This document shows positions 30,600 to 46,165 of a stretch of DNA of 49,096 nucleotides, piece after piece. The notes below the pieces were generated by a model. The model was not told where the DNA came from, made no database searches, and saw only the letters and a program-made list of their open reading frames with translations. Origin of the DNA: an uncultured Christensenella sp. (GTDB taxonomy: Bacteria > Bacillota > Clostridia > Christensenellales > CAG-138); assembly GCA_964509485.1 (NCBI GenBank), contig CAZDXW010000001.1, positions 1 through 49,096 on the forward strand, read 5' to 3'. The position numbers were made by a program, and so were the translations under genes. The number at the start of each line of letters is the position of its first letter. The first letter of the stretch is position 1.

Positions 30600-30827
30600 T
30601 TACGATCCGACGTGCCGCTCCTGCTGGGATTCGAGCTGAACTCCCGCACGCCGCCACTTGTAGTAGGTATGCACGGAAATGCCCGCCGCCTTGCAGCACT
30701 TATTCAGCGGCAATCCGCTCTTGTATAGGGCCTCGATGTGCAGCAGCTTTACCATTGCCCATTCGTACTCTCCGCTGTTTGGCGTCATAACATTCCCCTT
30801 TTTCTCGATCATTTGATCAAATCTCAT
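30600..30827 (-). CDS. Small HTH protein, paralogue of the previous one (75 aa)
   Basis: 'LPLNKCCKAAGISVHTYYKWRRAG'. Its ATG (30827-30825) overlaps the TGA of the NlpC/P60 gene as an ATGA. Confidence 0.5.
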   Translation of the reverse strand: MRFDQMIEKKGNVMTPNSGEYEWAMVKLLHIEALYKSGLPLNKCCKAAGISVHTYYKWRRAGVQLESQQERHVGS

Positions 30828-32812
30828 TCTTCAAACAGTACCGGTCTGCGAATATACCGAAATCCCGTGCTCCATGCCTCCGTTACGACGACCCCGTTCT
30901 TTCGCGACGAGCAGTGCGCAACAAGATAGCTGCCGTCGTCGTCCACCGAGACAATGATTCCAACGTGGTTAAACTGCTTTTCCCCCGGTACCGAGTAGAA
31001 GGCCAGATCGCCCGGTTTTCCCTCGTCCCAGCCGATCGCCGTGGAATGCGACCACTGGCTCGACGACCCGTTGCCAATCGCTTCCAGTACGCTCGTGTCT
31101 CCGGTCGCGTTGACGAACGTCCAACTGACGAACCCGCTGCAGTCCAGCCCGCCGGTGCGTTCCACGACGACGGATTCCCCGTCCTGTTCCGTGCGAACCG
31201 AGCAGGGCAGCCCCCATTGCTCGTTCCAGCCAAGCTTGTTGTACTTCCCCCCCCAGAGGTAGGTCACCTTGCCGACCAGCGAAAACGCGGTTTCGACCAC
31301 ATCCTTGCGCCGGACATCAAGATCGGCGGGAAGCGCGGCGCGGATCTGCTCGAGATCGGCATCCGTCGCGTCGAGAAACGCGGCGTTCCCGGTCAGCGAC
31401 GCGAACGTACGCTGAAACTCCGGCTGCATCAGCTCATATAGAAAGCTTTCGCGCTTGGCGTCCATGTCGTACTCGCCGGCCATCTCGTCGTACGATTTCG
31501 AATCCAGCATGACATTCGTCACGCCGTCCATGCGGATCACGCTGACCGGGTTCATGCGCCAGAACACCTCGTCCAACCCGTCCAGCGAAATCGATCGCAG
31601 CTGCATCAGGTCCAGCGGATGATCCACGTCCAGACTGCTTTCGGCGATAAACGTCGCCAGCACGTCGGACCAGTTCTTCACCGCCGCTTCCTGCACCGGC
31701 GAGAATTCCGCCGGTGCGACGCTCTCCGCGTCCGTGTCGTTCTCCGTGGCCGACTGCGCCATGATCCGTACGCCTGTTTCGCCCGCGGTCATCGACTGAA
31801 CTTTCTCGGCATACTGCTGCGTCAAATCCGCAATCTTCGCCGTCAGCGCGTCGCAGATTTCGTTGCGATACGCCAACAACACCTCATATCGTTCCGCACT
31901 GCTGCCCGTTGGTTCCGCAACGGTTCCATCCACATCCTCGTCGCTCTCGCCGGTAACGTGAACCACCCGCGTCACGGTGATCAGTTCGCCATCCTGCATC
32001 GCGCCATAGGTCACGCGGTAGTCCCCCGCGAGATCCGCACAAAAACCCCCGTCGTCCACCACCCAAACCGCTATCGGTTCGCCGGATTCCGTCTGCGCGC
32101 TCACGCCTTCCAGCAGCACAAAGGACGTGTCTCCGGCGGGAATCGACGTGTCCGCCGCCGTAATCGTGACCTTGCCGGTCGCGCTCGTCGGCACCGGAAC
32201 CGGCGTCGGCGTCGGCTCCGTTTCGTCCGGTGCCGCCTCGCCTTTCGCCAGCACAATCGTCCTGCCTGCATCCTCCGAAAGGTTCGCTACGCTTGCGCCG
32301 CCGCTCTCGCGATAACCGTCCTTCTCGGCGTTCGCGCGGTAATCATGCCCAGTCGGCAGCAGCCAGAAGACACTCCCCTCCGCTCCCGTCACTTCGGAGT
32401 AGAGAAACTCGCCATCCATATAAAGCTTCACGCGCGCGCCGGAAAGCGCATTCCCGTCCGCATCCTGAACCAGAATGGTCAGTCGAGCGTCCGCCGGAAT
32501 GGGCGTTGCCTCCGGGTCTTCCGCTGCATCCGTGCCGTCGGGCGTTACCGAAGGTTCCGCCGACTGCGTCGCTTCGGGTGTCGGCGTACTCTCCGCCGGA
32601 GGCTCGCTTTGTTCGGATTCCTCCACCACCGCACTCTCTTCCGGCACGGCAGTTGCTTCCGGTTCGCACACCGCGTCGGTATACAGTTCATCCTCCAGCG
32701 TGTAATCCAGCGCGTGAACCGCCGGTTCGGCACAGGCGGACAAGGCAAGAAGCAGCATGCCCGTCATCAGCAGCAACGCCAGTTTTCCGAATTGTCCTCG
32801 ATTTCGTTTCAT
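30824..32812 (-). CDS. Secreted lipoprotein with Ig-like modules and a C-terminal NlpC/P60 peptidoglycan endopeptidase domain
   Basis: Start at ATG 32812 (AGGAGG RBS) and lipobox LLALSAC. A carboxypeptidase-regulatory-like segment (RLTILVQDADGNALSGARVKLY) and an Ig-like segment (GDYRVTYGA...VTRVVHV) are present. The catalytic Cys lies in GGLDCSGFVSW and the His in FNHVGI. Confidence 0.8.
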   Translation of the reverse strand: MKRNRGQFGKLALLLMTGMLLLALSACAEPAVHALDYTLEDELYTDAVCEPEATAVPEESAVVEESEQSEPPAESTPTPEATQSAEPSVTPDGTDAAEDPEATPIPADARLTILVQDADGNALSGARVKLYMDGEFLYSEVTGAEGSVFWLLPTGHDYRANAEKDGYRESGGASVANLSEDAGRTIVLAKGEAAPDETEPTPTPVPVPTSATGKVTITAADTSIPAGDTSFVLLEGVSAQTESGEPIAVWVVDDGGFCADLAGDYRVTYGAMQDGELITVTRVVHVTGESDEDVDGTVAEPTGSSAERYEVLLAYRNEICDALTAKIADLTQQYAEKVQSMTAGETGVRIMAQSATENDTDAESVAPAEFSPVQEAAVKNWSDVLATFIAESSLDVDHPLDLMQLRSISLDGLDEVFWRMNPVSVIRMDGVTNVMLDSKSYDEMAGEYDMDAKRESFLYELMQPEFQRTFASLTGNAAFLDATDADLEQIRAALPADLDVRRKDVVETAFSLVGKVTYLWGGKYNKLGWNEQWGLPCSVRTEQDGESVVVERTGGLDCSGFVSWTFVNATGDTSVLEAIGNGSSSQWSHSTAIGWDEGKPGDLAFYSVPGEKQFNHVGIIVSVDDDGSYLVAHCSSRKNGVVVTEAWSTGFRYIRRPVLFEE

Positions 32813-32848
32813 GTCCGCTCCTCCTTTCCCACCTGTTCGGCTCATTCG

Positions 32849-33748
32849 TCAGCCCACCCCGCGAACGACCATTCGCACTTCGCCGCAGATTGCGCTCATT
32901 GGAATCTGCCCGATTCGGACGTCCCGGCTGTCGATCGACTTCGCGCGGTTGTCTCCCATCAGAAACACCATGTCGTCCTGCACGGTCACACTCTCCATGC
33001 CGCTGTTGTGCAAATCATCCGCCTGGATGTAAGGCTCGTCGGTCAGCACCAGATTTCGCACGACGGTGCCGTCCGCGTTGACCTGAATCACGTCGCCCGG
33101 CAGCCCGATTACCCGTTTGACCACCAGGCCGTATGCATCTCCCGTATCGAAGATCACGATATCGCCGTAGGTCACGTCTTGTACGCTCGTGTAGTAGAGC
33201 TTGTCGCCCTCCATGAGCGTCGGCTGCATTGAGGTTCCGGTGACCGCGTACTCCCGAACCACCAGCAGCGCGCCAATCACCGCGAGCAGCGCAAACGCTA
33301 CCACCGCAAGCAGCACAATCAGGGATCGCTTCGCGTGCGGGTTCGATTGCGCGCGCTCTATTTTCTGTGGACTTGCAGCTAAGCTCTGCGGCTTTGCCTC
33401 TGGTTTTCGTTTCGGCTGCGGCAATTGCGGCTGCTTCGTCTTCTTTTTCTTGTGTTGTTTCGCCGGTTTTACACCCGTTTTCGGTCTGTTCTGTCCGGAA
33501 CCCTGGCGCGCACGCTCAATCGGGAACCGCAGCGGTTCCTTCTGCTTCGGCTTCTCCGTTTGCTGCGGCTGCGTCGGAACAAGCGTCCACTGCGGACGTT
33601 CATACGAGAATTCCGGCATCGCCTCCGGCCGGCTGTTCGGGTTGCACTCGTTTTCGCTCCGTTGTCGGATATACGTGTTTGGAGAACGTTTGATTGTTTT
33701 TCGGACGGTCTTATAGGTCTGTGTATATCCGGAAATCCGATTTTCCAT
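32849..33748 (-). CDS. Signal peptidase I (S26), catalytically intact, with a long basic N-terminal extension
   Basis: Box B 'GTSMQPTL' (Ser), box D 'VVKRVIGLPGD' (Lys) and box E 'GDNRAKSIDSR' are present. The single TM segment is LIVLLAVVAFALLAVIGALLVV. It is preceded by about 140 Lys/Pro/Gln-rich residues. Confidence 0.85.
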   Translation of the reverse strand: MENRISGYTQTYKTVRKTIKRSPNTYIRQRSENECNPNSRPEAMPEFSYERPQWTLVPTQPQQTEKPKQKEPLRFPIERARQGSGQNRPKTGVKPAKQHKKKKTKQPQLPQPKRKPEAKPQSLAASPQKIERAQSNPHAKRSLIVLLAVVAFALLAVIGALLVVREYAVTGTSMQPTLMEGDKLYYTSVQDVTYGDIVIFDTGDAYGLVVKRVIGLPGDVIQVNADGTVVRNLVLTDEPYIQADDLHNSGMESVTVQDDMVFLMGDNRAKSIDSRDVRIGQIPMSAICGEVRMVVRGVG

Positions 33749-33754
33749 GCTTCC

Positions 33755-34615
33755 TTACTTCCGTTTCGCCAGAATTACAAATCGTCCGTCGTTCGTGTGG
33801 TATGCGCAGGTGGACAGCGTAATCAGATCGTCCCCATAGCGGACCGCTATGCCTGTGTCGTACAGCGCCGCGCCCCGAATCCCGTCGAGAAAATCCTGAA
33901 AATCCGCCTCGTCCGTTGCGTTGAGAAACGTATAGCACCTTAGCGTCTTTGCCGCTCGAAGATCGGTTTCCATCGCGGCGAATATTTCGTAGTCGCCTTC
34001 GTCGTAGAGCGTGCTGAAATGAATGATCGGGTGTTCGCGCCAGAAGTCCTTGTCCTTGTACTTCACGATTGTTGCGAACATGCTTCCGTTCTTCATGTGG
34101 TGGCCGTAGAGCACGATGTTGTCGCTGCGCGGCCAAATCGTACAACCTTCCCCGACAAACGGAACTCCGCTCATGGATTTCTTCTTTGAAAACGCAAGAT
34201 GGATGTACCGTTCCGGCTCGTCCGGCGTGAACATCACGGGATAGTCGAGGTCGGTGTCGTCAATCTTGATCCACCCGCCCAAGTCGCTGTTTTGCGCGTA
34301 CAGCTCTGTAAACCGGCTTAAGATTTGCGCGTTCTTTGGTTCCTCTGCCGTTGGCTCCGGGCTGGCGGAGGAAGCGACTGTTTCACCAAGCGTTTCGGGC
34401 ACGGGCGTTGCCTGCGTAGCAGGTTCCGCATTCGACGTGGCCGCCAGCAGCGCGATCTCGCGAAACGCGTCTGCCTCCGCCGCCCGTTCGCGGTAGTCCG
34501 CCAGCAGCGCCGCGCCAGCGACCGAGATCAGCAGCAACCCCGTCATAGCGAGCAGCAGCCGGCGCAGGAACCGCTCCGCCTTGCTTTTGCACGTTTCGCG
34601 TCCGTTTCGTTCCAT
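33755..34615 (-). CDS. Class B sortase (second copy)
   Basis: N-terminal TM only. 'GWIKIDDTDLDYPVMF', 'VLYGHHMKNGSMF', 'TLSTC' and 'RFVILAKR' supply the His, Cys and Arg triad in SrtB-type context. There is no class C lid and no C-terminal TM. Confidence 0.82.
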   Translation of the reverse strand: MERNGRETCKSKAERFLRRLLLAMTGLLLISVAGAALLADYRERAAEADAFREIALLAATSNAEPATQATPVPETLGETVASSASPEPTAEEPKNAQILSRFTELYAQNSDLGGWIKIDDTDLDYPVMFTPDEPERYIHLAFSKKKSMSGVPFVGEGCTIWPRSDNIVLYGHHMKNGSMFATIVKYKDKDFWREHPIIHFSTLYDEGDYEIFAAMETDLRAAKTLRCYTFLNATDEADFQDFLDGIRGAALYDTGIAVRYGDDLITLSTCAYHTNDGRFVILAKRK

Positions 34616-34640: not shown

Positions 34641-35636
34641 TTACTTCTTGTTCTTCTTCCCCGGCAGGAACGCCGCCACCAGGCAAATCAATCCCAGCGC
34701 GATGAGAATCCACCAAAGGTAGGCCTTCGATTCGTCCCCCGTCTTTGGTCCGTCCGGCTTGTCGTAGGCGTTCGTAAACACCAGCCCCGTCTGCGCTGCT
34801 CCCGATGCGTTGGTGATTGTCCGCGTTGCGGAGAGCTTCCCGTTCGTTTCCGTCACCACGACCGTCATGTGGTAGACCGTTGAATCATAGGTGTATCCGC
34901 TTGCCGAACCAACTTTTTCGTACACGGTATAGGTGTAGGTTCCTGCTTGCGTATACGTAATGTTCCCGAAATCTCCGCTTCCCGCGCCTGTGACGTTGAC
35001 CGTTTTGATCCCGCTCACGCTTCCTTCCGGCATGGGGTACGACGCATTGTCCGCCTTCATGTAAAACGTAAATACGCTGTTTGACGATGGCGTGTCGCCG
35101 CTGATTCGCTTCTCCACCGGAGGGTCGACGATCACATAGTCCGAGAGCACCGTGTTCGTAAACAGTGCCCGTTCCTGTTTCTCCGTCTGCCCGTGCTTCA
35201 CGAGATACATCACCGCCTGCAGCGTTCCGCCCGCCTGATCCTTCCAGGTTACCTGCACGGTCAGATCGTATACGGTTGTGTCGTATACGTAGTCTCCGCT
35301 GGTCCCGGCGACTTCGGAAATGGTGTAAAGGTAGTCGCCAACCGCCGTATACGTAATCGTTCCAAACGTCGTGTTTCCCGTTCCCGCAATCGTGGTTGTC
35401 TTCACCCCGTTGACGCTTCCGGCGGGCATTGGCGCGTTGTTGAGGGCGCTCAAACGAAACGTGAACGTCTCCGTCGTCGCCGGTATGCCGGAAACCACCT
35501 TGTAAACGGGTATGCTCAGCGTTGCCGGGGTGTCCGCCAGCGCGAGATTTCCCGCGGGAACCAACAGCGTTATCGTAAGCAGTAGCAAGCCCGCCATGAC
35601 TTTCTGTAGCAATCGAATTCGGTTTATAGATTTCAT
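34641..35636 (-). CDS. Pilin subunit with two FctA/Spy0128-like isopeptide domains and a GPKTG sorting signal (candidate basal or minor pilin)
   Basis: Start at ATG 35636, which overlaps the upstream sortase TGA. It has a signal peptide. The repeated motifs are 'PVYKVV...GDYLYTISE...YDTTVYDLTVQV...FTN' and 'VEKRISG...GTYTYTVYE...YDSTVYHMTVVV...FTNAY'. The C-terminus is 'GPKTGDES', a TM helix, then KKNKK. Confidence 0.8.
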   Translation of the reverse strand: MKSINRIRLLQKVMAGLLLLTITLLVPAGNLALADTPATLSIPVYKVVSGIPATTETFTFRLSALNNAPMPAGSVNGVKTTTIAGTGNTTFGTITYTAVGDYLYTISEVAGTSGDYVYDTTVYDLTVQVTWKDQAGGTLQAVMYLVKHGQTEKQERALFTNTVLSDYVIVDPPVEKRISGDTPSSNSVFTFYMKADNASYPMPEGSVSGIKTVNVTGAGSGDFGNITYTQAGTYTYTVYEKVGSASGYTYDSTVYHMTVVVTETNGKLSATRTITNASGAAQTGLVFTNAYDKPDGPKTGDESKAYLWWILIALGLICLVAAFLPGKKNKK

Positions 35637-36385
35637 CACGGTTCGCCTCCGGCTTGTTCTGTTTCGGTCATTCTTGCGACGAGAATCATTCTTCCGTTCG
35701 TCGTTCCTTCCGCGCAGGTGGACAAGGCGACGATCCGGTCCCGATCCGTCAGATCCGCCCCGCGGCGGAACGTTGCATCCTGCTGAATGTGCTTTGCCAG
35801 CGCATTCCAGCCGTCTGCCTCCAGCGGCAGATTGAAGAGCGGAGACGTGTACGCGTCCACTTCGAGAAACGCAATCATCTCCAGTTGATAGGTCTTGCCC
35901 GGCAGATACAGCCAGCCGGTTTGATGTTCGTCGAAATAGGTCTTGTCCGCAAATTTCTCCAAGTCGCCGAACATCATCCCGCCAGCCATGTGGTGCCCAT
36001 AGATCAGCGAATACTGATCCGAAAAGTCCTTGCTGCAGCGGTAGTCCAGAAAGATGCTGCCGCCGAGCGAATAGTCCCCGTAGATATCCTGGTTGAGATA
36101 CTTTGTGTTGTCGTCTGCCCGCAACACGGGGTAGTCGATGTTTGTGTCGTCCACCGTGAGCCACGCGCAGACCTCCGCGTTGATTGCCTGTAGCTCCGAA
36201 AGGGAGGGATTGGAAACGTCCGGTTTGAAGTGCATGACCTCGCTGGACACGCCCGCCTTGTTCAGAACCGAGTACGAGTCCCAGAGCGCGTACCCTGCAT
36301 AAAACAGGATGACGAGCAGCACCAGAATCAATGCCAGGTTCAGCAGCCTGTCCAGGCCGCGGATTAACCGGTCCGCCGTTTCCAA
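35636..36385 (-). CDS. Class B sortase (pilin polymerase candidate)
   Basis: N-terminal TM. Motifs 'AWLTVDDTNIDYPVLRADDNTKYL', 'LIYGHHMAGGMMF', 'ALSTC' and 'RMILVAR'. Confidence 0.82.
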   Translation of the reverse strand: METADRLIRGLDRLLNLALILVLLVILFYAGYALWDSYSVLNKAGVSSEVMHFKPDVSNPSLSELQAINAEVCAWLTVDDTNIDYPVLRADDNTKYLNQDIYGDYSLGGSIFLDYRCSKDFSDQYSLIYGHHMAGGMMFGDLEKFADKTYFDEHQTGWLYLPGKTYQLEMIAFLEVDAYTSPLFNLPLEADGWNALAKHIQQDATFRRGADLTDRDRIVALSTCAEGTTNGRMILVARMTETEQAGGEP

Positions 36386-36414: not shown

Positions 36415-37752
36415 TTACTTGCGTTTCCTGAGCAGGATCACGACCAGGAGGATCGCAACCACGCCGAGCAGCGCATAGGGCAGGATGTTGAGCAGCACGC
36501 CCGTCGGCGTCACAGACTCCTTGTTGTTCGTGAAGTTCTGCTCGTTGACCGCACCCGCGCCCGTGAAGATTGTCTGCTGGTTGGTCGTTTTATTGGTCGT
36601 TACCGCCGTCTTAACCGTCGTCAGCACCGCCGGGGTAGCCGTATTGCCGTGTTCAACGGTGATCGTCGTGCGGTAATCCGCCGTTCCGCTCTCTGTCGTC
36701 GTCACGCGCTCGCCCGACGGCAGGCCGATGATCTGGATGTACTGGCTGTGCGTCAGCGTGAACGTTCCGGAGTTCGAAATGGTTCCGGTTCCGCCCGCCA
36801 CCGCGGTGTCCGCCGCCGTGCCCGTTCCGCCGATTGCGTTGTCGCTGCCCATCTCATACTTCTGATAGGTATAGCTTGCCGTGTCGGCGGCTCCCGCCGG
36901 CGTGACCAGTCCAAGCGTAAACGAGAATGCCAGGTTCGGGTCCGCGATGTCACCGGTGACCAGTTTCGTAACCGTCAGGGCTGCCGTGTTGTAGTCGTTG
37001 ACAAACGGGTAGCTGATGTTGCGAACGGCTCCGTCCGTAGCCGGAGGCAGCACGATGCCGATTTTACCGACGTCCTCTTCGCCCGGGTTGTTCGTGATCG
37101 GTCCCAGATTGCCGTTGTCCGGCCCGGTCAGGGTCAGGTTGCTGGTGTTGGTGGTTTCCCACGCCGTAATCGCGCTGACGTTTACCACCGGGTTGCCGCT
37201 CGCATCCAGTAAGGGCGTGCCGTCGTCATTCAACACGTTGGTGACGTAAACGTTGATGTAGTAGACCGTTTCGTCATAGTCCACACCGGAGATCGGGGAT
37301 CCCGGAACGGTACCCAGCGTATCGGTCGTGCCGGGGATGCGCTCGGTGAGCCGATAGGTGTAAATACCCGCTTGCGTATAGGTGATGTTCCCCGTCGTGG
37401 TGGTCTGCGTCTGCGTCGTGCCCGTTGCCGTCGCCGAGAAACCGCTCACAGTGATGAGCTGCGCACCGGTCGTTCCGCCCGGCATTGGCAGGTTCGCCGC
37501 GGTATACGCAATCGACCCTGCGCTCGTTGGCCCCGCCGTATAGCCCACCGGCTCCAGCAAAAAGCCAAAGCTCGTGACCGCCGGAAAGACCCCTGCCGTC
37601 GTCGCCGTCAGCGTCTTGCCAACGGTGATGTTTGCGCTGTTGTTGTGGCTCGCCGGATCATCCGCCATGGATGTGGTGAACGGTGCCATCACCAGTGCCA
37701 GAGCGAGCAGCATCATCAGCGCTCTTCCAAGTTTTCCGTAGTTGCGTTTCAT
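36415..37752 (-). CDS. Backbone pilin candidate, two-domain FctA/Spy0128-like, VTPTG sorting signal
   Basis: Signal peptide. Domain 1 reads 'ITVGKTL...GIYTYRLTE...YDETVYYINVYV...YPFVNDY'. Domain 2 reads 'LTVTKLVTGD...FSFTL...QNFTNNK'. The C-terminus is 'VTPTG-VLLNILPYALLGVVAILLVVILL-RKRK'. Its position relative to the SipA-like gene and the sortase mirrors fctA. Confidence 0.8.
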   Translation of the reverse strand: MKRNYGKLGRALMMLLALALVMAPFTTSMADDPASHNNSANITVGKTLTATTAGVFPAVTSFGFLLEPVGYTAGPTSAGSIAYTAANLPMPGGTTGAQLITVSGFSATATGTTQTQTTTTGNITYTQAGIYTYRLTERIPGTTDTLGTVPGSPISGVDYDETVYYINVYVTNVLNDDGTPLLDASGNPVVNVSAITAWETTNTSNLTLTGPDNGNLGPITNNPGEEDVGKIGIVLPPATDGAVRNISYPFVNDYNTAALTVTKLVTGDIADPNLAFSFTLGLVTPAGAADTASYTYQKYEMGSDNAIGGTGTAADTAVAGGTGTISNSGTFTLTHSQYIQIIGLPSGERVTTTESGTADYRTTITVEHGNTATPAVLTTVKTAVTTNKTTNQQTIFTGAGAVNEQNFTNNKESVTPTGVLLNILPYALLGVVAILLVVILLRKRK

Positions 37753-37849
37753 TGATTACCTCCATTTGTATTTTGTTTGTTTTTGTTATTGATAAAGCAG
37801 TCCTCAGCTTGCTTTTATAACCGTTGATCCAACCCGCGCCTGCGTTTGT

Positions 37850-38428
37850 TTATAGCCCGCGGTTTCGCAGCAGTGAAATCACTTTCCCTTTGATATCCCC
37901 TTTCGCAACCGGGCCAAAATCCCGGCTGTCCTGCGCGTACTCGCGGTTGTCCCCGAGGATGAACACCTCGTTTCCCGCGAGTGTAACCGGTAGAACGGTT
38001 GCCCGCCCTTCGGCGCTTGTCGCGGAAAACACCTCTTCCTGCTGAACGCTGCCGTTGACAATCAGCTGTCCATCCGCGTTGAGATCCACCGTGTCTCCGC
38101 CCATTGCGACAATGCGCCCGTAATACAGAACTCCGTTCTTTGCGTAGGCAACAACGTCGCTGACGTTTTGCTCCGCTTCCAGCCGGTAAAAAATCACCAT
38201 GTCTCCGTCCCGCAGGCGAGGATACATTCCCTCGCCGTTTACAATTCCGACTCCAAAGAGGAAGGAGAGCGCCAGATATCCGCATATCGCAATTGCGGCA
38301 ATCTTCTCCGCCAGTGCCCATGCACTGTGCCGGATCTCCAACCTTCGCCTGCGCGTCTGGAAAATCTGTACAACGCGTTCTTTATCGTCGACCTTGTGTT
38401 TCCCGCTCATTCTACTCGTTTGTTCCAT
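37850..38428 (-). CDS. SipA/LepA-like signal-peptidase-I homologue lacking the catalytic Ser and Lys (pilus assembly chaperone candidate)
   Basis: It has the S26 fold boxes, but box B reads 'GEGMYPRL' (Gly where Ser is expected). Box D reads 'YGRIVAMGGD' (Gly where Lys is expected). Box E 'GDNREYAQDSRDFGPV' is retained. Start taken at ATG 38428 (MEQTSRM). The alternative at 38461 overlaps the upstream gene by 32 nt. Confidence 0.8.
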   Translation of the reverse strand: MEQTSRMSGKHKVDDKERVVQIFQTRRRRLEIRHSAWALAEKIAAIAICGYLALSFLFGVGIVNGEGMYPRLRDGDMVIFYRLEAEQNVSDVVAYAKNGVLYYGRIVAMGGDTVDLNADGQLIVNGSVQQEEVFSATSAEGRATVLPVTLAGNEVFILGDNREYAQDSRDFGPVAKGDIKGKVISLLRNRGL

Positions 38429-38429
38429 C

Positions 38430-38897
38430 TCACTTGCCCGAGGCGCTCTTTCCTCCGCCATACAGCTTCAAGATTTGGTTGGCCGAGAATGCCTGCGCGG
38501 AAGCGGTCTCATCTTCGCGGCTCTGCCCAAACTGTCGCTGTTTCTGCTTTCGCGTTTGCGTCTCACTCGGAACAAGCGCCGCCGTCTGCTCTTGCCGCTC
38601 CTGAACTCTCATTGGTTCCTTCTGCATGGCCTCTTTCAGCTGATTCCACTCGTCCCGCATCCGCTTCACTTCCTCGTCGTTCTCGCGGATCATGTCCTGC
38701 AGCTGCAACGCGTAGTTGCGCCATTCGCCAACCGCCCCCTGCGAGTTTTGGTGCTGAACATCCAGCAGCTCGTCGTATTCCCCATGCAGTTTCTCGAATA
38801 CCCGCCAGACGTCCTCTTCGTCCACTCCGCCGATGATCCGATTCCGAAATTTTACGGAGTTCAAGTATCTCTCCAGTTGTTTGTAACTCTTTGCCAT
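38430..38897 (-). CDS. Coiled-coil protein with a DivIVA-like N-terminal motif
   Basis: 155 aa with no signal peptide. 'VKFRNRIIGGVDEEDVWRVFEKL' resembles the DivIVA/GpsB N-terminal 'F..GFRGYD..EVD.FL' motif. Heptad-rich Glu/Gln/Arg sequence follows. Confidence 0.55.
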   Translation of the reverse strand: MAKSYKQLERYLNSVKFRNRIIGGVDEEDVWRVFEKLHGEYDELLDVQHQNSQGAVGEWRNYALQLQDMIRENDEEVKRMRDEWNQLKEAMQKEPMRVQERQEQTAALVPSETQTRKQKQRQFGQSREDETASAQAFSANQILKLYGGGKSASGK

Positions 38898-38920: not shown

Positions 38921-41900
38921 TCAGATTCTCTTCGCGTTTCGTTGCCTGCTTTGCTTTTTACGGTGCGCCAGAGAGAGCGACAACGTCAGCACTCCGCCGG
39001 CCAGAAGGATCATCAGAGCATATGGATAGATGTGCAGCAGAATCCCCGTTGGTACGGTGCCAATCAACGTGTTTGTAAACAGCAGATTGACGTCGCCTAG
39101 AACGGTGCTTCCCGCTCCGGCATTGCCAACTGCGGTAAAGCTGCCACCATTCGTCTCCGTGATCTCCAGTTGATACCCACTGAAGATCAGGATTTCGGAG
39201 ATCACATAGGAGGATCCAACCGGAACTTTGTCGATCGTGATGCTTTGTCCGTGCTTGAGCGGAATGATCGCAAACCCGCTCAGGATCGTTCCGTCCGCCG
39301 GAGCTTCCACGCCTGCAATGGTGGATGCGCCGGTGTAGGCCAGCGACGCTCCTGCGTCGTTGAGCACGATTCGGAAGTTGAACTCCTCCTTCGGATCGGC
39401 CAGATTGCCCTTCACGATCTTGGAGATCGTGATCGACTTGGTGCCGACGCGATGGTATGTTTCGTTTGTCAAAAGCGAATCCGTTCCCGTCGTCACGTTC
39501 GCGCTGTTCACATAGAATGTTTCGAGTGCCCCCGCGGTCACCATCTCAATGGTCACCTGAAACGCAAACTGGTGCTGCTCGCTGGTTACGGGAGCGTCCT
39601 CCCAGAAGACCGTGGTGACGCCGGTCGCCGTATCCGTTGACCAGGTCATTCCCGGCGTATAGGTTCCGCTGTCCTTGACCAGCGTTAACCCCGCCGGAAG
39701 TACATCCGTAATATCAACCGTTCCAATGTTCGCAAGCGCATAGGCGTCATTCCAATCGAGGTCGATTGAATAGGTAATCGTGTCGTTGATTGCCGCTTCC
39801 ACCGGTGCTGTTGGCGTTCCGTTGTTGATACTCCCCGCGTTTAGCCTTGCGTTTTTACTCGCTGACAACAGCACACCGTATCCGAAGTCCATGTTATCGA
39901 CGGACGCGGTTATCCCTGTCAAGGTTACGCCGCTCACGATGGCCCGGGTCCCCGTCTCTTCCGCGTCGTTATCGGTAGAGGCCGTCTTCAGCGTTATCTG
40001 CAATCCGTCCGGCGTGGTCATCACGATTTGGTAAGACCCCTGCGGGATTCCGTTCAGGTTGTATTCGCCGGCCGCATTGGTCGCCGCAATGAGAGGCGAA
40101 CCGTAGATTCCGTTGACCGGCGTCGTATACGTGGTATCCCCGGCGGCATAGAGTCCAACCGTCATGCCGGGAAGCCTGCTCTCGGCGGCGTCGATCATGC
40201 CGTTCCAGTTCGTATCCGCCCAAACCCGCCCGTTGACCGAACGAATGATGGCAAAGCCGATGTCCTGGTTGTTTACTGCCGTCGCCGTCGTGAGATCAAT
40301 CCCGCTGATCACGGCGTTTGCGCTCTCTGCCAATGCGTCGTTGTCGGTCGAAACCGTCTTTAACGTTACAATATGATTGTCCGGCGTGAGCGCAACCACT
40401 TTGTACGTGCCATATGGAATCTGAGCGAAGCTGTACGCGCCGTTTGCATCCGTCGTGGTTGTCAGCGGTGTACCGTTCAGGTTGTTCGCAGGCGTTGTAT
40501 AGGTTGTGCTCGTGCTTGGATACACGCCGACCGTAAGCCCGGATACGCGGGGTTCGCCGGTTTCCAGCATGCCGTCCCAATCGATATCCGTCCAGACGGT
40601 ACCGCTGATCGAGTGGCTGATCGTAAAGCCGAAATCTTTATGCACATAGGACGTCGCAGTCGTTAAATCAATGGAGTTGATAACAGCCCGTGTGCCGGAC
40701 GGTACGGCGTCGTTGTCATTCGCCAGCACCGTGACGACGTATCCGTTTGGTGTTGTCGTAACCACTTTGTATGTACCATACGGAATGGAGGATAATGTGT
40801 ATCCACCCGTCGAAGTGGTTGTTGTCGTCAGCGCGACCCCATATATATTGGTAACCGGGGTTGTATAGGTCGTATCCGTGCTGGCGTACAGACCCACCGT
40901 TAAGCCGGAGAGCAGCGTCTCGCCGCCTGTTCCGCTCATGCCGTCCATGGTTCCGTTTGCGTTAGCATCCAGCCAGGCGTTGCCGGTTACTCTTCGATCC
41001 GGCGCAAAGCCGAAGTCCATGTTACTAGCAGACGTTGCAGTGGTCAGCCCAACGTTGCTAATCAAAGCCCGTGTACCGGAGGGACTTGCATCATTATCAT
41101 TCGCCAATCTTGTTACGATATACCCGCTTGGCGTCGTAATTACGACCTTATAGGTTCCGTAAGGGATCAGCGAGAAGCTGTAGGTTCCGGTCGCACTCGT
41201 TGTCGTCGTCAACGATTGGCCATATAGATTCGTCAGAGGAGTGGAATAGGTGTTATCCGTATTTGCGTAGATTCCAACCGTCAAACCAGAGATTCTGCTC
41301 TCTCCTGTGTCGATTGTGCCGTCCGTGTCCGTGTCATACCAGACGCGGCCGGCAATCGTGCGATTTGAAGTAAGCCCGAAATCGATGTTTGTCACAGCCG
41401 GAGTTGTGGTCGAAACCGAAACATTTCCCGTCCGCGCAATCGTCTGTGGGGAAAGCATGGTCGGCGACGCATCGTTGTCATTCACCAACCGAGTCATCAC
41501 ATAACCGCCCGGTATGGAAATCTGAAGGATATATACGGTAGCATCAATAGACGAGAACGAATAATCGCCAGATGCATTTGTAACCGCAGTTGCGATTGGG
41601 TTGGTAAAGAAATAGTCGTCGTTCCGGTAGGCTGTTACCGTGATTCCGGGCATTCTGGTTTCGCTGGTGTCGATTGTTCCGTCGGAATCCGCATCGTTCC
41701 AGATTCTGCCGCTGATCGATCCACCGACAATCGTAAAGCGGTTCACATAGGACGTTTCGTCCCCCGAATTAACCGTCCGCCCGGTCACGCTGGAGTAGCT
41801 CGTGAAATCGCTTGCATTGTATCCTTCGTAGTTGCGGTCGTTATAGGTAACGCTCGCCTGATTCTTTACGACCATTCCAACGGGACCCGTTACGCGAGCC

Positions 41901-43000
41901 TGATACGAAATGGTGTGGGTCATACCTTCGCCGTAAGCAAGGTTAATGCCAATGGTGTTTCGGGAGCCCCACGTCACGCCGCCGTTCGTATTGGACGTGC
42001 CCGCGGTTGCCCCGTCGCCAAAGTTGACGCGTAGTTCGTCCGTCGTGCTGTTAAACGTCGCAAGGCTTCCCGCTTGATAACCGTCAATCGTTACGCTGCC
42101 GGAGACGAAGTCGAGTCCGTCGCTCAGGATGTCCCGAAACACACAGCGGGATGCATCGGACTCACCCCAGTTCGTAATGTTGACTGTGACGGTAACAACC
42201 TGGCCTCGCCATGCGGTTGTGCTGCCAGACTGCAGCGTTGTGATGCTTTTTTTTGCAATCAGTTTAGAGCCGGTCTGAAACGCAACGTCGTCTAGGAAGT
42301 TACCGTTCTGTACGTTTCCAGTCCAGGAAGAAACGGCTGCAAAGTCAAATTCTGTACTGGTTTGGCCTGCTGGCACTGTATATGCGCCGCGGTAGTAGTA
42401 CCATTGGGTTCCGTTGTTGTTTGCCGTTTGGATTAGCTGCGAACCGGAAGGCGCGGTCGTTGGTGAACCGGAAGGCCGCAGATAGAAGTTCATTTGATCG
42501 TATTTTGTCGAACTGTTCCCAATCGCCCGATGGGCGAACTGCCAATATACTCTGGAACTAGGTGTAGTAGAAACAACCTGATACAAACGCCCTGGAAAGA
42601 GGCAATTCAGCTCAGCATACTGATTTCCATCCGCCTGCGTTGTAGCGAAGGTATATGGAACACCGGAATTCCCAGTCGGATCGACAACTTGCAACTCGAT
42701 TAAGTAAGCATTTGGATTCGTACCATAAGCCGCATAGTCGACAGGGCAGGTTGACCAGCTCGCCATTTGAGCAATCGTATAGCCGTCAAATCGAGCGCCG
42801 TCACTGGCACGAACGCGGGTAACCGTTGGAGATTGGAAACTACCGTTAAGAAAATTAATCGGCAGCGGCTTCGTTTCGTTGGGCACATAGTAAACCTGTG
42901 TCCCGGCCTGTGCCGACTTCACAGGGAGCAACAATGCCAACGCTCCAATCACCAAGGCGACACCAATAAAAGACAGAGCTCTATTCTTACGTTTCTTCAT
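38921..43000 (-). CDS. Large sortase-anchored tip-adhesin candidate (1359 aa)
   Basis: Start at ATG 43000 (MKKRKNRALSFIGVALVIGALALLLPVKSAQA). The inferred architecture, N- to C-terminal, is as follows. First an N-terminal jelly-roll/lectin-like domain (NGSFQSP...GNFLDDVAF). Then a DUF11-like domain and five SdrD-B/CnaB-like repeats. Then a second DUF11-like domain and a SpaA/FctA-type isopeptide domain (ITISKIVKGN...FNFRIVL...LLFTNT). The sorting signal is 'TVPTG-ILLHIYPYALMILLAGGVL-...HRKK'. Confidence 0.85.
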   Translation of the reverse strand: MKKRKNRALSFIGVALVIGALALLLPVKSAQAGTQVYYVPNETKPLPINFLNGSFQSPTVTRVRASDGARFDGYTIAQMASWSTCPVDYAAYGTNPNAYLIELQVVDPTGNSGVPYTFATTQADGNQYAELNCLFPGRLYQVVSTTPSSRVYWQFAHRAIGNSSTKYDQMNFYLRPSGSPTTAPSGSQLIQTANNNGTQWYYYRGAYTVPAGQTSTEFDFAAVSSWTGNVQNGNFLDDVAFQTGSKLIAKKSITTLQSGSTTAWRGQVVTVTVNITNWGESDASRCVFRDILSDGLDFVSGSVTIDGYQAGSLATFNSTTDELRVNFGDGATAGTSNTNGGVTWGSRNTIGINLAYGEGMTHTISYQARVTGPVGMVVKNQASVTYNDRNYEGYNASDFTSYSSVTGRTVNSGDETSYVNRFTIVGGSISGRIWNDADSDGTIDTSETRMPGITVTAYRNDDYFFTNPIATAVTNASGDYSFSSIDATVYILQISIPGGYVMTRLVNDNDASPTMLSPQTIARTGNVSVSTTTPAVTNIDFGLTSNRTIAGRVWYDTDTDGTIDTGESRISGLTVGIYANTDNTYSTPLTNLYGQSLTTTTSATGTYSFSLIPYGTYKVVITTPSGYIVTRLANDNDASPSGTRALISNVGLTTATSASNMDFGFAPDRRVTGNAWLDANANGTMDGMSGTGGETLLSGLTVGLYASTDTTYTTPVTNIYGVALTTTTTSTGGYTLSSIPYGTYKVVTTTPNGYVVTVLANDNDAVPSGTRAVINSIDLTTATSYVHKDFGFTISHSISGTVWTDIDWDGMLETGEPRVSGLTVGVYPSTSTTYTTPANNLNGTPLTTTTDANGAYSFAQIPYGTYKVVALTPDNHIVTLKTVSTDNDALAESANAVISGIDLTTATAVNNQDIGFAIIRSVNGRVWADTNWNGMIDAAESRLPGMTVGLYAAGDTTYTTPVNGIYGSPLIAATNAAGEYNLNGIPQGSYQIVMTTPDGLQITLKTASTDNDAEETGTRAIVSGVTLTGITASVDNMDFGYGVLLSASKNARLNAGSINNGTPTAPVEAAINDTITYSIDLDWNDAYALANIGTVDITDVLPAGLTLVKDSGTYTPGMTWSTDTATGVTTVFWEDAPVTSEQHQFAFQVTIEMVTAGALETFYVNSANVTTGTDSLLTNETYHRVGTKSITISKIVKGNLADPKEEFNFRIVLNDAGASLAYTGASTIAGVEAPADGTILSGFAIIPLKHGQSITIDKVPVGSSYVISEILIFSGYQLEITETNGGSFTAVGNAGAGSTVLGDVNLLFTNTLIGTVPTGILLHIYPYALMILLAGGVLTLSLSLAHRKKQSRQRNAKRI
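39878..41719 (-). repeat. Five tandem repeats of about 120 codons each (SdrD B-repeat / CnaB-like) inside the adhesin gene
   Basis: Each unit starts with the (I/V)xG(R/T/N)(I/V/A)W.D...(D/N)G pattern: ISGRIWNDADSDGTID, IAGRVWYDTDTDGTID, VTGNAWLDANANGTMD, ISGTVWTDIDWDGMLE, VNGRVWADTNWNGMID. Each ends in (D/M)(F/I)GF. Units 2-4 share IPYGTYKVV. Confidence 0.85.
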
Positions 43001-43016
43001 ACATCCGTTCCTTACC

Positions 43017-44327
43017 TTAGTCGATGACTTGTATAGCGTTACTGTCGCCTTCTTCGCCCGGCGTACTGTTCGTCTTTGCCGTTTGCGACGCATCCTTCAG
43101 AACGACGATTTCCGCGGTTACCCGCCCTCCGCCGCCAAATCCATCCTCGACATGCATACTCAATTTGTAAGTGCCCGCCGAATCCGTATCGTACCTCCCA
43201 CTCCATGAGATGGGGATGTTCCGGTAACCGCCGTCTCGCATGAACGCGCCCGTTTGGCTTGGCAGATGTACGCTTTCGCCTTCCAGAACAACAAAGCGCA
43301 TCAGAAGTCCGTCCTCGGATATGCCACAGAAACTTTGAATCTCGTTGCAGTCCGCAATGCGTACGCTTGCCGTCACCGGTTCGCCCGCGTAGGTATAGGC
43401 GGTGGAGGGAGTGCTCACCTCTGGCGTTTGCACCGGTTCTTCCGTTTGATCGGGCACAGGGCTCTCTTCGATTTGCTCCGTCGTCTCCACCGTCTCGGAG
43501 GAGGGATTCAGTATCGACGCCGTGAACACCCAGGGGCCATAGCCATACCGGCTCTCGATTGCATAAATCGTCTCATTCTCGTAGAGCTCGTTTGCTTCGT
43601 CCGCAACGCTGGCCCAAGTAACCGGAACCTCAATCGGTACCCCGTTGCCGTTGATTGCGGTAAGCGTCGCAGGCAGCGGGATATTCTCCTCCGAAGTGCC
43701 GCGCTCCACGAAGATTTCGATCGGTTCGTTCACAAAGGAAGTAATCACAGAATCGAGCGCGGGATCGGGCGTCGGGGTGATCTCCGGCGAAGCGCTTCCA
43801 TCCGGCGTTAAGCTCGGTTCCGGCGTTTCGGAAGCATCCGGCGTAGCGAAAGGCTCCGCTTCCTCTGCCGCCTGCACCTCAACCTCAATAGTTGGCAGCG
43901 TTCCTTCGTATATGTATCCCGGCTGAAGTACCGCGGCGAAGAGGTATGTGCCAATGGAATCCGGCGTATAATCCTCGCTCACCCAGGCAACGGGCACGTC
44001 GCGCAGTTCCAGTATCTCGGTCGGCGCTTCGCTTTGCTCCGCATCCTGCGAAGGTTCCTGAGGAATCACAACGCTTGCGGGGAGCGTATCCGGCAGCCCG
44101 ATTTCTTCCGCCGCTGTTCCAAGCGGCACAACCAGCTTTGCTGTGCGCTCCTCGGAAAACGAAGCGATAGCGACTTCTCCGTCCGCCAGAGCGCGTACTG
44201 TTTTCGTGCCGCAGGCGGTAGCAAAGAGGCAAAGCACCAGCAGCATGCAGGTGAATATCCGTGCCCTGCTTAACCCGGTATGCGTCGTACCCATGTTTCT
44301 TTGGCTCTCGCCTGATTTCTGATTCAA
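43017..44327 (-). CDS. Lipoprotein with three Big_4-like Ig modules; first gene of the pilus operon
   Basis: TTG start at 44327, placed 7 nt after AGGAGG. An alternative ATG lies at 44294. Lipobox LFATAC. Three 'V(P)V.W....Y...S.GTY' modules are present (VPVAWVSEDYTPDSIGTYLF, VPVTWASVADE, IPISWSGRYDTDSAGTYKL), separated by Pro/Glu/Thr linkers. Confidence 0.7.
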   Translation of the reverse strand: MNQKSGESQRNMGTTHTGLSRARIFTCMLLVLCLFATACGTKTVRALADGEVAIASFSEERTAKLVVPLGTAAEEIGLPDTLPASVVIPQEPSQDAEQSEAPTEILELRDVPVAWVSEDYTPDSIGTYLFAAVLQPGYIYEGTLPTIEVEVQAAEEAEPFATPDASETPEPSLTPDGSASPEITPTPDPALDSVITSFVNEPIEIFVERGTSEENIPLPATLTAINGNGVPIEVPVTWASVADEANELYENETIYAIESRYGYGPWVFTASILNPSSETVETTEQIEESPVPDQTEEPVQTPEVSTPSTAYTYAGEPVTASVRIADCNEIQSFCGISEDGLLMRFVVLEGESVHLPSQTGAFMRDGGYRNIPISWSGRYDTDSAGTYKLSMHVEDGFGGGGRVTAEIVVLKDASQTAKTNSTPGEEGDSNAIQVID

Positions 44328-44590: not shown

Positions 44591-44628
44591 AAATTAAGTA
44601 CAGTTCAGCGAACTAAACTGTACTTAAA
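44591..44628 (-). terminator. Intrinsic terminator after response regulator 2
   Basis: Hairpin AAGTACAGTT...AACTGTACTT followed by a T-run on the minus strand. Confidence 0.65.
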
Positions 44629-44656: not shown

Positions 44657-45328
44657 CTACTTCCTGTCCTCCATCCATCCCATCTTCGCTGCGTACGCGA
44701 TTACTTGTGACTTGTTCTCCATTTGCAGTTGCTCCATGATCGAAGCCATGTGATATTTTACGGTTCGTTCGGTGATTCCAAGAAGATCGCCCGTTTCTTT
44801 ATAGGTCGTTCCTTTTGCTACCGCTTCCAGTACTTCCATTTGTCGTTCAGTGAGCCCGCTGCCGATGTGTGTGTTCGCCCCCGAGAGGAACACACGATTT
44901 TTCAGATCGCTGCTACTGATCTCCCGGAGCAGCCGCGCCGCCAGCCTGGGCGAGAGCGGAGCGCCTCCGTTTTCCAAGTCCAACAGCATATCAACCAGCT
45001 CCGCTCCGTTCATGCTCTTGAGCAGATAGCCGGATGCGCCCAGTTTAATTGCCTGGAACAAATCTTCGTCGTCCTCGGACGTGGTCAGCATAATGATTTT
45101 TATCCCCGGCATCCGCCCCTTGATCTGACGGAGGGCTTCAATCCCGTCGCATTCCGGCATGCGGACATCCATTAAAATAATATCCGGTGTAAGCGTTTCG
45201 GCTTTCTGCACCGCTTCCCTTCCGTTGCAAGCCACACCGACAACCTCTACGCCATAGGTTCCCAATAAAAACTGCAAACTGTCGGTAAACAGTTTATGAT
45301 CGTCTGCCAGCAGTATTCTCGGCGCCAT
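44657..45328 (-). CDS. NarL/LuxR-family response regulator (copy 2)
   Basis: Start at ATG 45328 (MAPRILLADDHKLF). Receiver domain (DIILMDVRMP, IIMLTTS, GASGYLLK) followed by a LuxR HTH (LTERQMEVLEAVAKGTTYKETGDLLGITERTVKYHM). Confidence 0.88.
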   Translation of the reverse strand: MAPRILLADDHKLFTDSLQFLLGTYGVEVVGVACNGREAVQKAETLTPDIILMDVRMPECDGIEALRQIKGRMPGIKIIMLTTSEDDEDLFQAIKLGASGYLLKSMNGAELVDMLLDLENGGAPLSPRLAARLLREISSSDLKNRVFLSGANTHIGSGLTERQMEVLEAVAKGTTYKETGDLLGITERTVKYHMASIMEQLQMENKSQVIAYAAKMGWMEDRK

Positions 45329-45397
45329 GTCCCATCCCTCGTTTCCCAATTCCTTTTACATCGTTCCCCCTTTATTTAACACTGATTGTAACTATTT

Positions 45398-45420
45398 CAC
45401 AATGTACCGATATACAGTCC
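45398..45420 (-). promoter_or_regulatory. Conserved box, copy B (upstream of response regulator 2)
   Basis: The plus-strand sequence is CACAATGTACCGATATACAGTCC. It shares CACAATGTAC and ATACAGT with copy A, and ACCGATATACA with copy C. Confidence 0.45.
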
Positions 45421-45430
45421 AGCAAAATGA

Positions 45431-45465
45431 AAAAAGTACAGTCGGCTTCTTTCGACTGTACTTTT
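45431..45465. terminator. Intrinsic terminator after response regulator 1
   Basis: AAAAGTACAGTCG-GCTTCTT-TCGACTGTACTTTT, with A and T runs on the two sides. Confidence 0.7.
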
Positions 45466-45487
45466 CAAAAACTGTACTCTGAGTTCT

Positions 45488-46153
45488 CTATTTTTGATGG
45501 ATCCATCCCATCTTCGTCGCGTAGGCGATCGCCTGCGCTTTGTTTTCTGTTTGGAGTATCTCCATAATGGTCGCCATATGATACTTCACGGTTCGTTCGG
45601 TGATGTGCAGCTGGCTACCAACCTCCTTATAGGTCGCGCCTCGAGCCACCGCTTCCAGCACCTCAATCTGACGTTGTGTCAACGGGTCATCATTTGCTGC
45701 ATCCACCTGCGCAACAACGGCGTTTGTCGGCTCTCCACCACGGCGAAACTCATTGAGCAGACGCGTTGCCAGCTTCGGCGCGAGCGGAGCGCCGCCTTTC
45801 TCGATATTGAGCAGCATTTCGACCAGTTCATTCCCGTTCATGCTTTTCAGCAGATAACCGGACGCCCCCAGCTTGATTGCCTGAAACAGGTTCTCGTCTT
45901 CATCGGACGTGGTCAGCATGACCACCTTGACGTCCGGCATCTTGCTCTTGATTCGCTTCAGTGTCTGAATTCCATTGCTCCCCGGCATCATAATGTCCAT
46001 CAGAATCACGTTTGGCTTCAGTTCTTCGGCTTTTTGCAGTGCTTCAAACCCGTTTTCCGCTACACCGAGAACCTCGATCCCATAGGTTCCCAACAGAAAC
46101 TTCAAACTATCGGTAAACAGCTTATGGTCATCGACAAGAAGTATTTTTAACAT
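45488..46153 (-). CDS. NarL/LuxR-family response regulator (copy 1, cognate position after the kinase)
   Basis: MLKILLVDDHKLF..., receiver domain plus LuxR HTH. It is a paralogue of copy 2, sharing long identical runs (LFQAIKLGASGYLLKSMNG, TERTVKYHMA). Confidence 0.9.
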   Translation of the reverse strand: MLKILLVDDHKLFTDSLKFLLGTYGIEVLGVAENGFEALQKAEELKPNVILMDIMMPGSNGIQTLKRIKSKMPDVKVVMLTTSDEDENLFQAIKLGASGYLLKSMNGNELVEMLLNIEKGGAPLAPKLATRLLNEFRRGGEPTNAVVAQVDAANDDPLTQRQIEVLEAVARGATYKEVGSQLHITERTVKYHMATIMEILQTENKAQAIAYATKMGWIHQK

Positions 46154-46165
46154 ATGCTATCCTCT

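Follow-up and report, generated by a model that had tools for sequence, protein, structure and literature searches.

A signal peptidase homologue without its catalytic dyad in an FCT/PI-2-type pilus operon of an uncultured Christensenella sp. and its relationship to streptococcal SipA

A 49,096-nt stretch of the genome of an uncultured Christensenella sp. (contig CAZDXW010000001.1, here called the window; 53% GC) carries at 37850..38428, on the minus strand, a gene for a 192-aa homologue of signal peptidase I (SPase) in which glycine has replaced both catalytic residues. Analysis of this gene, its operon, and its relatives indicates that the product is probably a pseudo-peptidase of the SipA/LepA family, serving as a noncatalytic pilin-assembly partner of the class B sortase SrtB1 in a pilus operon of the FCT/PI-2 type. 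An earlier note, made from the letters of this DNA alone, had pointed to a protein with S26 architecture, an N-terminal transmembrane helix and box E, had read the catalytic Ser and Lys as Gly, and had placed the gene in the slot that sipA occupies in FCT loci, upstream of the backbone pilin. These readings all held when the sequence was compared with known proteins and loci.

The catalytic positions were assigned by HMMER alignments to three crystallized active SPases, those of Bacillus anthracis (4nv4), Enterococcus faecalis (4me8), and Staphylococcus aureus (SpsB, 4wvh), as well as to the operon's own active enzyme. The box B equivalent, GEGMYPRL (38213..38236, minus strand), aligned as GEG-MYPRL with G.S-M.PTL of the active enzymes, which puts Gly67 (codon 38228..38230) in place of the nucleophilic Ser. 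Likewise, the box D equivalent, YGRIVAMGGD (38093..38122, minus strand), aligned as YG-RIVAMGGD with V-K-R.IG.PGD, and Gly104 (codon 38117..38119) stands in place of the general-base Lys. The motif registration of the earlier note was therefore correct, and the Ser/Lys dyad of an active signal peptidase I is missing. Since neither residue is present, the SipA-like protein cannot cut signal peptides.

Membership in the S26 family is evident from a profile match (Pfam Peptidase_S26, PF10502; E = 2e-19), from boxes C, D, and E, and from the N-terminal membrane anchor. Box E, the canonical structural motif of the family, is kept as GDNREYAQDSRDFGPV (37907..37954, minus strand), with the core GDNREYAQDSRDFG. 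The best 19-aa Kyte-Doolittle window, AIAICGYLALSFLFGVGIV (mean hydrophobicity, 2.29), corresponds to residues 45 to 63 (38240..38296, minus strand), and because the basic stretch RRRR precedes it, an N-in/C-out topology is predicted. An AlphaFold2 model (pLDDT 80) shows a single long N-terminal helix followed by a beta-rich domain. With E-values of 1e-19 to 1e-25, the S26 pattern is not due to chance. The protein also scored 89.5 bits against the NCBIfam signal peptidase I model (TIGR02227; cutoff, 47), which means that standard annotation pipelines would name it "signal peptidase I." This points to a systematic misannotation of such proteins, which pass the threshold of the "signal peptidase I" equivalog yet cannot be peptidases.

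The closest solved structure was that of Streptococcus pyogenes SipA. In phmmer searches, SipA (4n31) matched with an E-value of 3.7e-23, followed by LepA (4k8w) with 1e-19, compared to about 1e-7 for the active SPases. Foldseek searches with the model also placed 4n31 on top (E = 5e-12; TM, 0.82 to 0.85; 39% identity), and their matches included SpsB (E = 2e-6) and LepB. Furthermore, the Arg of the YRL motif, Thr137, Pro147, and Ala108 occur in both the window protein and S. pyogenes SipA; these signature residues are near-invariant within the SipA-like family and variable among active SPases. The C-terminal end R-x-R-G-[LI] is likewise common to both proteins and was found in 178 of 193 family members. 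The greater similarity to SipA than to active SPases, the position in one clade with SipA (see below), the loss of the dyad, and the gene order support the assignment of the window protein to the SipA/LepA pilus-assembly pseudo-peptidases.

The resemblance to S. pyogenes SipA/LepA (FCT-2/3/4) extends to the S26 fold and the single N-terminal anchor. Gly85 of SipA is the same Lys replacement as Gly104 of the window protein, whereas the Ser position is Asp48 in SipA and Gly in the window protein. Box E also differs, being the canonical GDNR in the window protein and NDYR in SipA, and the cytoplasmic N terminus of the window protein is longer and basic. S. pyogenes SipA has been reported to lack peptidase activity, to retain an SPase-like peptide-binding cleft, to be essential for pilin polymerization in FCT-2 and FCT-3, and to occur only in operons with a class B sortase; the description of SipA in the earlier note, as a polymerization factor without the dyad rather than a protease, agrees with this literature. 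By homology, we infer a chaperone function for the window protein as well. Housekeeping SPases (SpsB, LepB, and SipS) have the fold, the membrane topology, and boxes C and E in common with it. However, they possess the Ser/Lys dyad, cleave signal peptides, and form a separate clade (99/100 bootstraps).

Homology to the FCT system is not limited to the peptidase homologue. Compared with an S. pyogenes FCT locus (L013), the window showed matches for SipA (E = 2e-31), the sortase (E = 6e-47), the backbone pilin over its full length (E = 1e-11), and the basal pilin (E = 3e-11). The window cassette has a pilus-type SrtB, pilins resembling T-antigen and FctB, isopeptide domains, and a QVPTGV-class sorting signal. 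Because the whole gene set is homologous, it is the cassette, and not the peptidase homologue alone, that constitutes an FCT/PI-2-type pilus system. A comparison of the backbone sorting signal VTPTGVLLNILPY with QVPTGVVGTLAPF revealed the extended pattern PTG[VI]x5P[YF] in both, and in nearly every case the pilin behind the SipA-like gene has x-PTG-[VI]-x5-P-[YF], like that of S. pyogenes.

Gene order was also conserved. The order SipA-like protein, DUF7601 pilin, sortase, and FctA/FctB-type pilin was found in 17 of 17 loci, namely, 11 from a genome collection, a near-identical strain (L016), S. pyogenes, Enterococcus raffinosus, Faecalibacterium, and two loci from other clades of the tree (L017 and L018). 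The hosts were Christensenella-like, Oscillospiraceae, and Lachnospiraceae metagenome-assembled genomes (MAGs), Mediterraneibacter hominis, Faecalibacterium, E. raffinosus, and S. pyogenes. In S. pyogenes, the order cpa, sipA, fctA, srtC, and fctB is strictly conserved, i.e., SipA lies between the tip adhesin and the backbone pilin and is followed by the class B sortase and the basal pilin, and the slot in the window is alike except that one added gene (DUF6115) separates the adhesin from sipA. Compared to S. pyogenes FCT, the window operon further contains a second SrtB, an active SPase, and a CHAP hydrolase. It resides in a Clostridia genome rather than in Streptococcus.

A different line of evidence came from natural fusions. 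Seven clusters (90% identity) encode a class B sortase and a SipA-like domain in a single open reading frame (ORF) (P0246, P0338, and P0343 to P0347). Pfam Sortase and Peptidase_S26 were both detected in one chain when P0246 and P0338 were scanned directly, and precomputed Pfam assignments gave the same pair for four of the remaining five. The fusions are 37 to 54% identical to one another over their full length. All seven retain the sortase Cys (STC), and six of them also retain the GHH motif, whereas none has the Lys of the S26 domain and only P0345 keeps a Ser at the nucleophile position. Three hydrophobic segments were apparent in every fusion. They correspond to the anchors of the sortase and of SipA and, between them, a return helix with a basic linker, a topology that would place both domains outside the membrane. 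Two fusions could be seen in their loci (L019, 812..2377; L020, 7001..8437), and in L020 the fusion comes after an adhesin-pilin and a small PKTG pilin. By the Rosetta-stone argument, such fusions argue that the dead peptidase acts physically beside the sortase, i.e., that SipA may work with it in a complex. Another candidate, P0255 (588 aa), in which Listeria-Bacteroides repeats precede the SipA-like domain, has no signal peptide. It is probably the run-on of a truncated or miscalled adhesin gene and was therefore left out of the fusion count.

The family to which the window gene belongs is large. A word-indexed search recovered 95 metagenomic relatives, a profile search recovered 848, and when 1.84 billion cluster representatives were scanned exhaustively with HMMER, 911 SipA-like sequences were recovered at E ≤ 1e-30, each representing a cluster at 50% identity, mostly from Clostridia and additionally from Enterococcus and Streptococcus. 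The genome collection was scanned with a tight 10-sequence alignment, a 30-sequence alignment (A1) being too diverse. Named members came from Eubacteriales, Lachnospiraceae, and Oscillospiraceae MAGs, Faecalibacterium, Ruminococcus sp., M. hominis, E. raffinosus, S. pyogenes, and S. dysgalactiae, and all of them are annotated as "signal peptidase I." The closest species-representative genome was a Christensenella sp. MAG, with 74% identity in the SipA-like protein and 83 to 87% in the pilin and the sortase.

Loss of the dyad is a feature of the family as a whole. Among 194 members, the Lys column contained Gly (127), Arg (45), or Ala (14) and never Lys, while the Ser column contained Gly (86), Ser (45), Asp (39), and others. 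A Lys was present in 2 of 146 further representatives, both of which also had the Ser, so that about 338 of 340 sequences overall lack the Lys. These two high-scoring relatives, P0270 and P0301, keep both residues (VDGNSMYPTL and RYIKRVVAREG) and may be catalytically competent sequences near the root of the family. In about a quarter of the members, Arg occupies the Lys position, several of them with a Ser, for instance, P0186 of E. raffinosus (DDSMVPAV and LQLRRVVAIEGD); some residual or altered chemistry is conceivable in this subclade. The SipA-like gene itself is under purifying selection, as shown by a dN/dS of 0.18 against the Christensenella-like locus L001, similar to the 0.11 to 0.16 of neighboring genes. 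Nineteen columns are invariant across family sequences that are 34 to 78% identical, and these are the usual structural residues of S26.

A neighbor-joining tree was built from 120 catalytic-domain columns of 53 taxa, including eight active SPases, with 100 bootstraps. The active SPases were separated from the SipA-like family in 99 of the 100 bootstraps. Streptococcal SipA was monophyletic in 99, and in 98 of these 99 it was nested among the clostridial sequences rather than basal to them. This nesting, together with the SPase split, indicates a single origin of the family with later spread. The earlier note had proposed that a SipA-type pseudo-enzyme outside streptococci would mean either an ancient and widespread mechanism or convergent recruitment. 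Of these, wide distribution by common descent is borne out, whereas convergent recruitment of an S26 paralogue is not supported, given the tree and the common signature residues. The tree is a distance tree on a short alignment, and it gives neither a direction nor a date for the exchange between Clostridia and Lactobacillales.

These observations suggest how the SipA-like protein may act. It would be a single-pass protein with its N terminus inside the cell and its S26 domain at the external membrane surface, where the fold and the peptide-binding scaffold have been kept without the chemistry. It would adjoin SrtB1, probably in a complex with it, and would bind or position pilin precursors (sorting signals, TVPTG and VTPTG) for polymerization by the sortase. 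The PKTG pilin and the second sortase would afterwards finish and anchor the fiber. Both the requirement for polymerization and the physical partnership in this organism are drawn from the streptococcal system and the comparisons described above.

However, several points weigh against such an assembly role. In vitro, S. pyogenes SipA bound neither pilin nor sorting-signal peptides nor sortase, which leaves the binding model unproven even in that species. The role of SipA in polymerization and its inactivity as a peptidase are known from streptococci only. The fusions come from metagenomic contigs only, each being found on one or a few, and the L019 fusion has no pilin neighbors on its short contig. 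Finally, the presence of an active SPase in the window operon leaves room for a role in signal peptide processing.

This last point leads to an alternative in which the SipA-like protein would serve the operon's active SPase (32849..33748) as a pseudo-enzyme partner or regulator, holding pilin signal peptides or modulating their cleavage. Dead and active S26 genes do occur together in the window operon, L002, and L016, SipA retains an SPase-like peptide-binding cleft, and S. suis SipF, an active pilus-cluster SPase, makes a modest contribution to polymerization. But among the 17 loci, only L002 and L016 have the active SPase of the operon, whereas the SipA-like gene is always beside a pilin and a sortase, and in the fusions the SipA-like domain is joined to a sortase and never to an SPase. 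We therefore consider this alternative unlikely. Less likely still, and in fact very improbable, is a protein that remains a hydrolase through some noncanonical catalytic arrangement. The 45 of 194 members that keep the nucleophile Ser, often with Arg at the Lys position, and the two high-scoring representatives with an intact dyad lend it some substance, but Gly at both positions of the window protein offers no side chain to act, the invariant columns are structural, and in S. pyogenes SipA, which has no peptidase activity, the equivalents of Asp48 and Lys83 were mutated without effect.

The same loss of both catalytic residues, in a gene that automatic annotation would call signal peptidase I, might also be expected of a decaying, functionless SPase paralogue. 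A dN/dS of 0.18 and 19 invariant columns across such divergent sequences speak against decay, as do the recurrence of the dyad loss in hundreds of clusters, the strict synteny, the apparent translational coupling described below, and the retention of the domain in fusions. This makes a functionless relic the least credible of the alternatives, with hardly any likelihood of being correct, and a noncatalytic partner of SrtB1 in pilin assembly remains the probable explanation.

The start of the SipA-like gene was set at the Met at 38428, the conserved start. The longest frame is 37850..38461 (minus strand; 203 aa), of which the chosen start is Met12; the start at 38428 was preferred because the resulting 192 aa correspond to the length and the N-terminal register of most homologues. 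Its ATG lies 1 nt past the stop codon of the upstream DUF6115 ORF, and in L001, L002, L004, and L010 this junction is either as tight or an overlap of 8 to 20 nt. The two genes are thus apparently translationally coupled. Overlapping ORFs on both strands (37815..38321, minus; 38168..38836, plus) were dismissed as the usual spurious long frames of GC-rich coding DNA.

DUF6115 is a coiled-coil protein of 155 aa (38430..38897, minus strand; Pfam E = 2e-6) without a signal peptide, predicted to be cytoplasmic. Its gene has a dN/dS of 0.16. In 8 of the 11 clostridial loci, its first ~50 residues (MAKS..LxSVKFR..GGVDEEDVW..FEKL) are conserved, but streptococcal, enterococcal, and Faecalibacterium cassettes lack the protein. 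A resemblance of its N terminus to DivIVA/GpsB was a by-eye impression that was not confirmed (no Pfam DivIVA match at E ≤ 1), and a PDB sequence search with the 155-aa protein returned coiled-coil noise only.

The pilus operon spans about 13.5 kb, and all of its genes are on the minus strand, downstream of a terminator-like hairpin (44594..44627, minus strand; a 15-pair stem followed by a T run) that comes after an upstream response-regulator gene and is likely to mark the upstream boundary of the operon. The first gene of the block (43017..44327, minus strand) encodes a 436-aa Big_4-domain putative lipoprotein with a lipoprotein-like N terminus; it is kept directly upstream of the tip adhesin in L001 to L003 and L016. 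The tip-adhesin candidate (38921..43000, minus strand; ~1359 aa from MKKRKNRAL) has five SdrD_B repeats, DUF11, a C-terminal DUF7601, and a TVPTG signal. The DUF6115 and SipA-like genes follow, and the latter ends 97 nt upstream of the gene for the predicted backbone pilin (36415..37752, minus strand; 445 aa). This pilin has a signal peptide, DUF7601, and the QVPTGV-class signal given above, its C-terminal segment includes KESVTPTGVLLNILPYALL, and it aligns over its full length with the S. pyogenes T-antigen.

The next gene encodes SrtB1 (35636..36385, minus strand; 249 aa), the predicted pilin polymerase, which matched TIGR03064 with 181 bits. Its best PDB matches were 4y4q ("Sortase, SrtB family") and 3psq, both with E ~1e-45, compared to 1e-20 to 1e-30 for other chains annotated as SrtB. 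We take 3psq to be Spy0129, the pilus sortase of S. pyogenes, and the chains with weaker scores to be SrtBs of the iron-uptake type. The pilin in the FctB (basal) position (34641..35636, minus strand; 331 aa) has two Spy0128-like isopeptide domains (Pfam FctA, E = 4e-40) and a GPKTGDE signal, and it matched both T-antigen and FctB in the PDB. TIGR03786 was also matched among the cassette pilins, and a TIGR03065 match was below the cutoff (17.4 versus 21.35). The backbone and basal roles of the 445-aa and 331-aa pilins are predictions from position, homology, and sorting-signal type.

Three further genes complete the block. The first of them is the second class B sortase-like gene, SrtB2 (33755..34615, minus strand; 286 aa). 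The active-type S26 signal peptidase I (32849..33748, minus strand; 299 aa) has GTSMQPTL and VVKRVIGLPGD intact, carries an N-terminal extension of ~145 aa rich in Pro, Lys, and Gln, and clusters with housekeeping-type SPases; the operon thus combines a live signal peptidase with a dead one. The conserved block ends with a gene (30824..32845, minus strand) for a secreted 673-aa protein with Ig-like domains and a C-terminal CHAP/NlpC_P60 hydrolase domain, of which L002 has a copy with 52% identity and which is also present in L016. A possible role of this protein is to remodel the cell wall so that the pilus can be displayed.

Beyond the terminator, upstream of the pilus block, lie genes for two LuxR-type response regulators and a 7TM-PAS histidine kinase (44657..47848, minus strand). 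The same arrangement is present in L016, and these genes are candidate regulators of the pilus operon. A sigma-70 promoter scan, which turned up fewer sites than in shuffled sequences and no minus-strand site, gives no information about promoters in this organism. An Rfam scan over the whole window found no riboswitch or other RNA family. Elsewhere, phage-type integrase genes lie shortly upstream of two SipA-type cassettes (L018, 1743..2876; L020, 1..91), hinting that the cassette is mobile.

Other pilus systems with an S26 gene differ in how closely they resemble the window. The SipA of S. pneumoniae PI-2 and the Mitis group, also from streptococcal hosts, is by description similar, being a pilus-islet SPase homologue needed for pilus assembly. 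S. suis SipF and S. agalactiae PI-2b Lep are, like the window gene, S26 genes within a pilus cluster. However, SipF keeps the Ser and Lys, is partnered with a class C sortase, and is dispensable for polymerization; in catalytic status it is nearer to the active S26 gene of the window than to the SipA-like gene. Outside streptococci, the necrotic-enteritis pilus locus of Clostridium perfringens VR-10B has already been described; it includes a class B sortase and a "signal peptidase" and shows synteny with the streptococcal loci. Those papers are silent on the peptidase dyad, and a gene in the region is labeled sipW in one figure legend. Given this report, the idea of such a locus outside streptococci is less new than the earlier note assumed.

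The SipA concept is likewise well known in streptococci. The window gene adds a member to a family that is far larger than the literature describes; the literature searched contained no account of the size of the clostridial family, the nesting of streptococcal SipA, or the sortase-SipA fusions. The value of the gene is therefore as an entry point to a comparative data set. How SipA aids class B sortases has been a standing question since 2008, and the only experimental system is streptococcal, with negative binding results in vitro. Covariation analysis could draw on the hundreds of SipA sequences that the clostridial family provides together with their paired sortases and pilins, and the natural fusions could be used to model or crystallize a SipA-sortase complex.

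More broadly, we tentatively propose that dead peptidases of the SipA type may be obligate extracytoplasmic partners of class B pilus sortases across Firmicutes, and that streptococcal SipA may be a minor branch, probably gained by horizontal transfer, of a radiation of ~900 clusters centered in gut Clostridia. If this is true, the fusions would reveal a physical complex that was missed by the in vitro work on S. pyogenes, and the clostridial version would be the fuller, self-contained module, to which a coupled DUF6115 protein in the cytoplasm, an active SPase, and a CHAP cell wall hydrolase also belong. The placement of streptococcal SipA within a large clostridial family leads to the prediction that many gut commensal Clostridia, including Christensenella-like bacteria, Faecalibacterium, and Lachnospiraceae, would make FCT-like pili.

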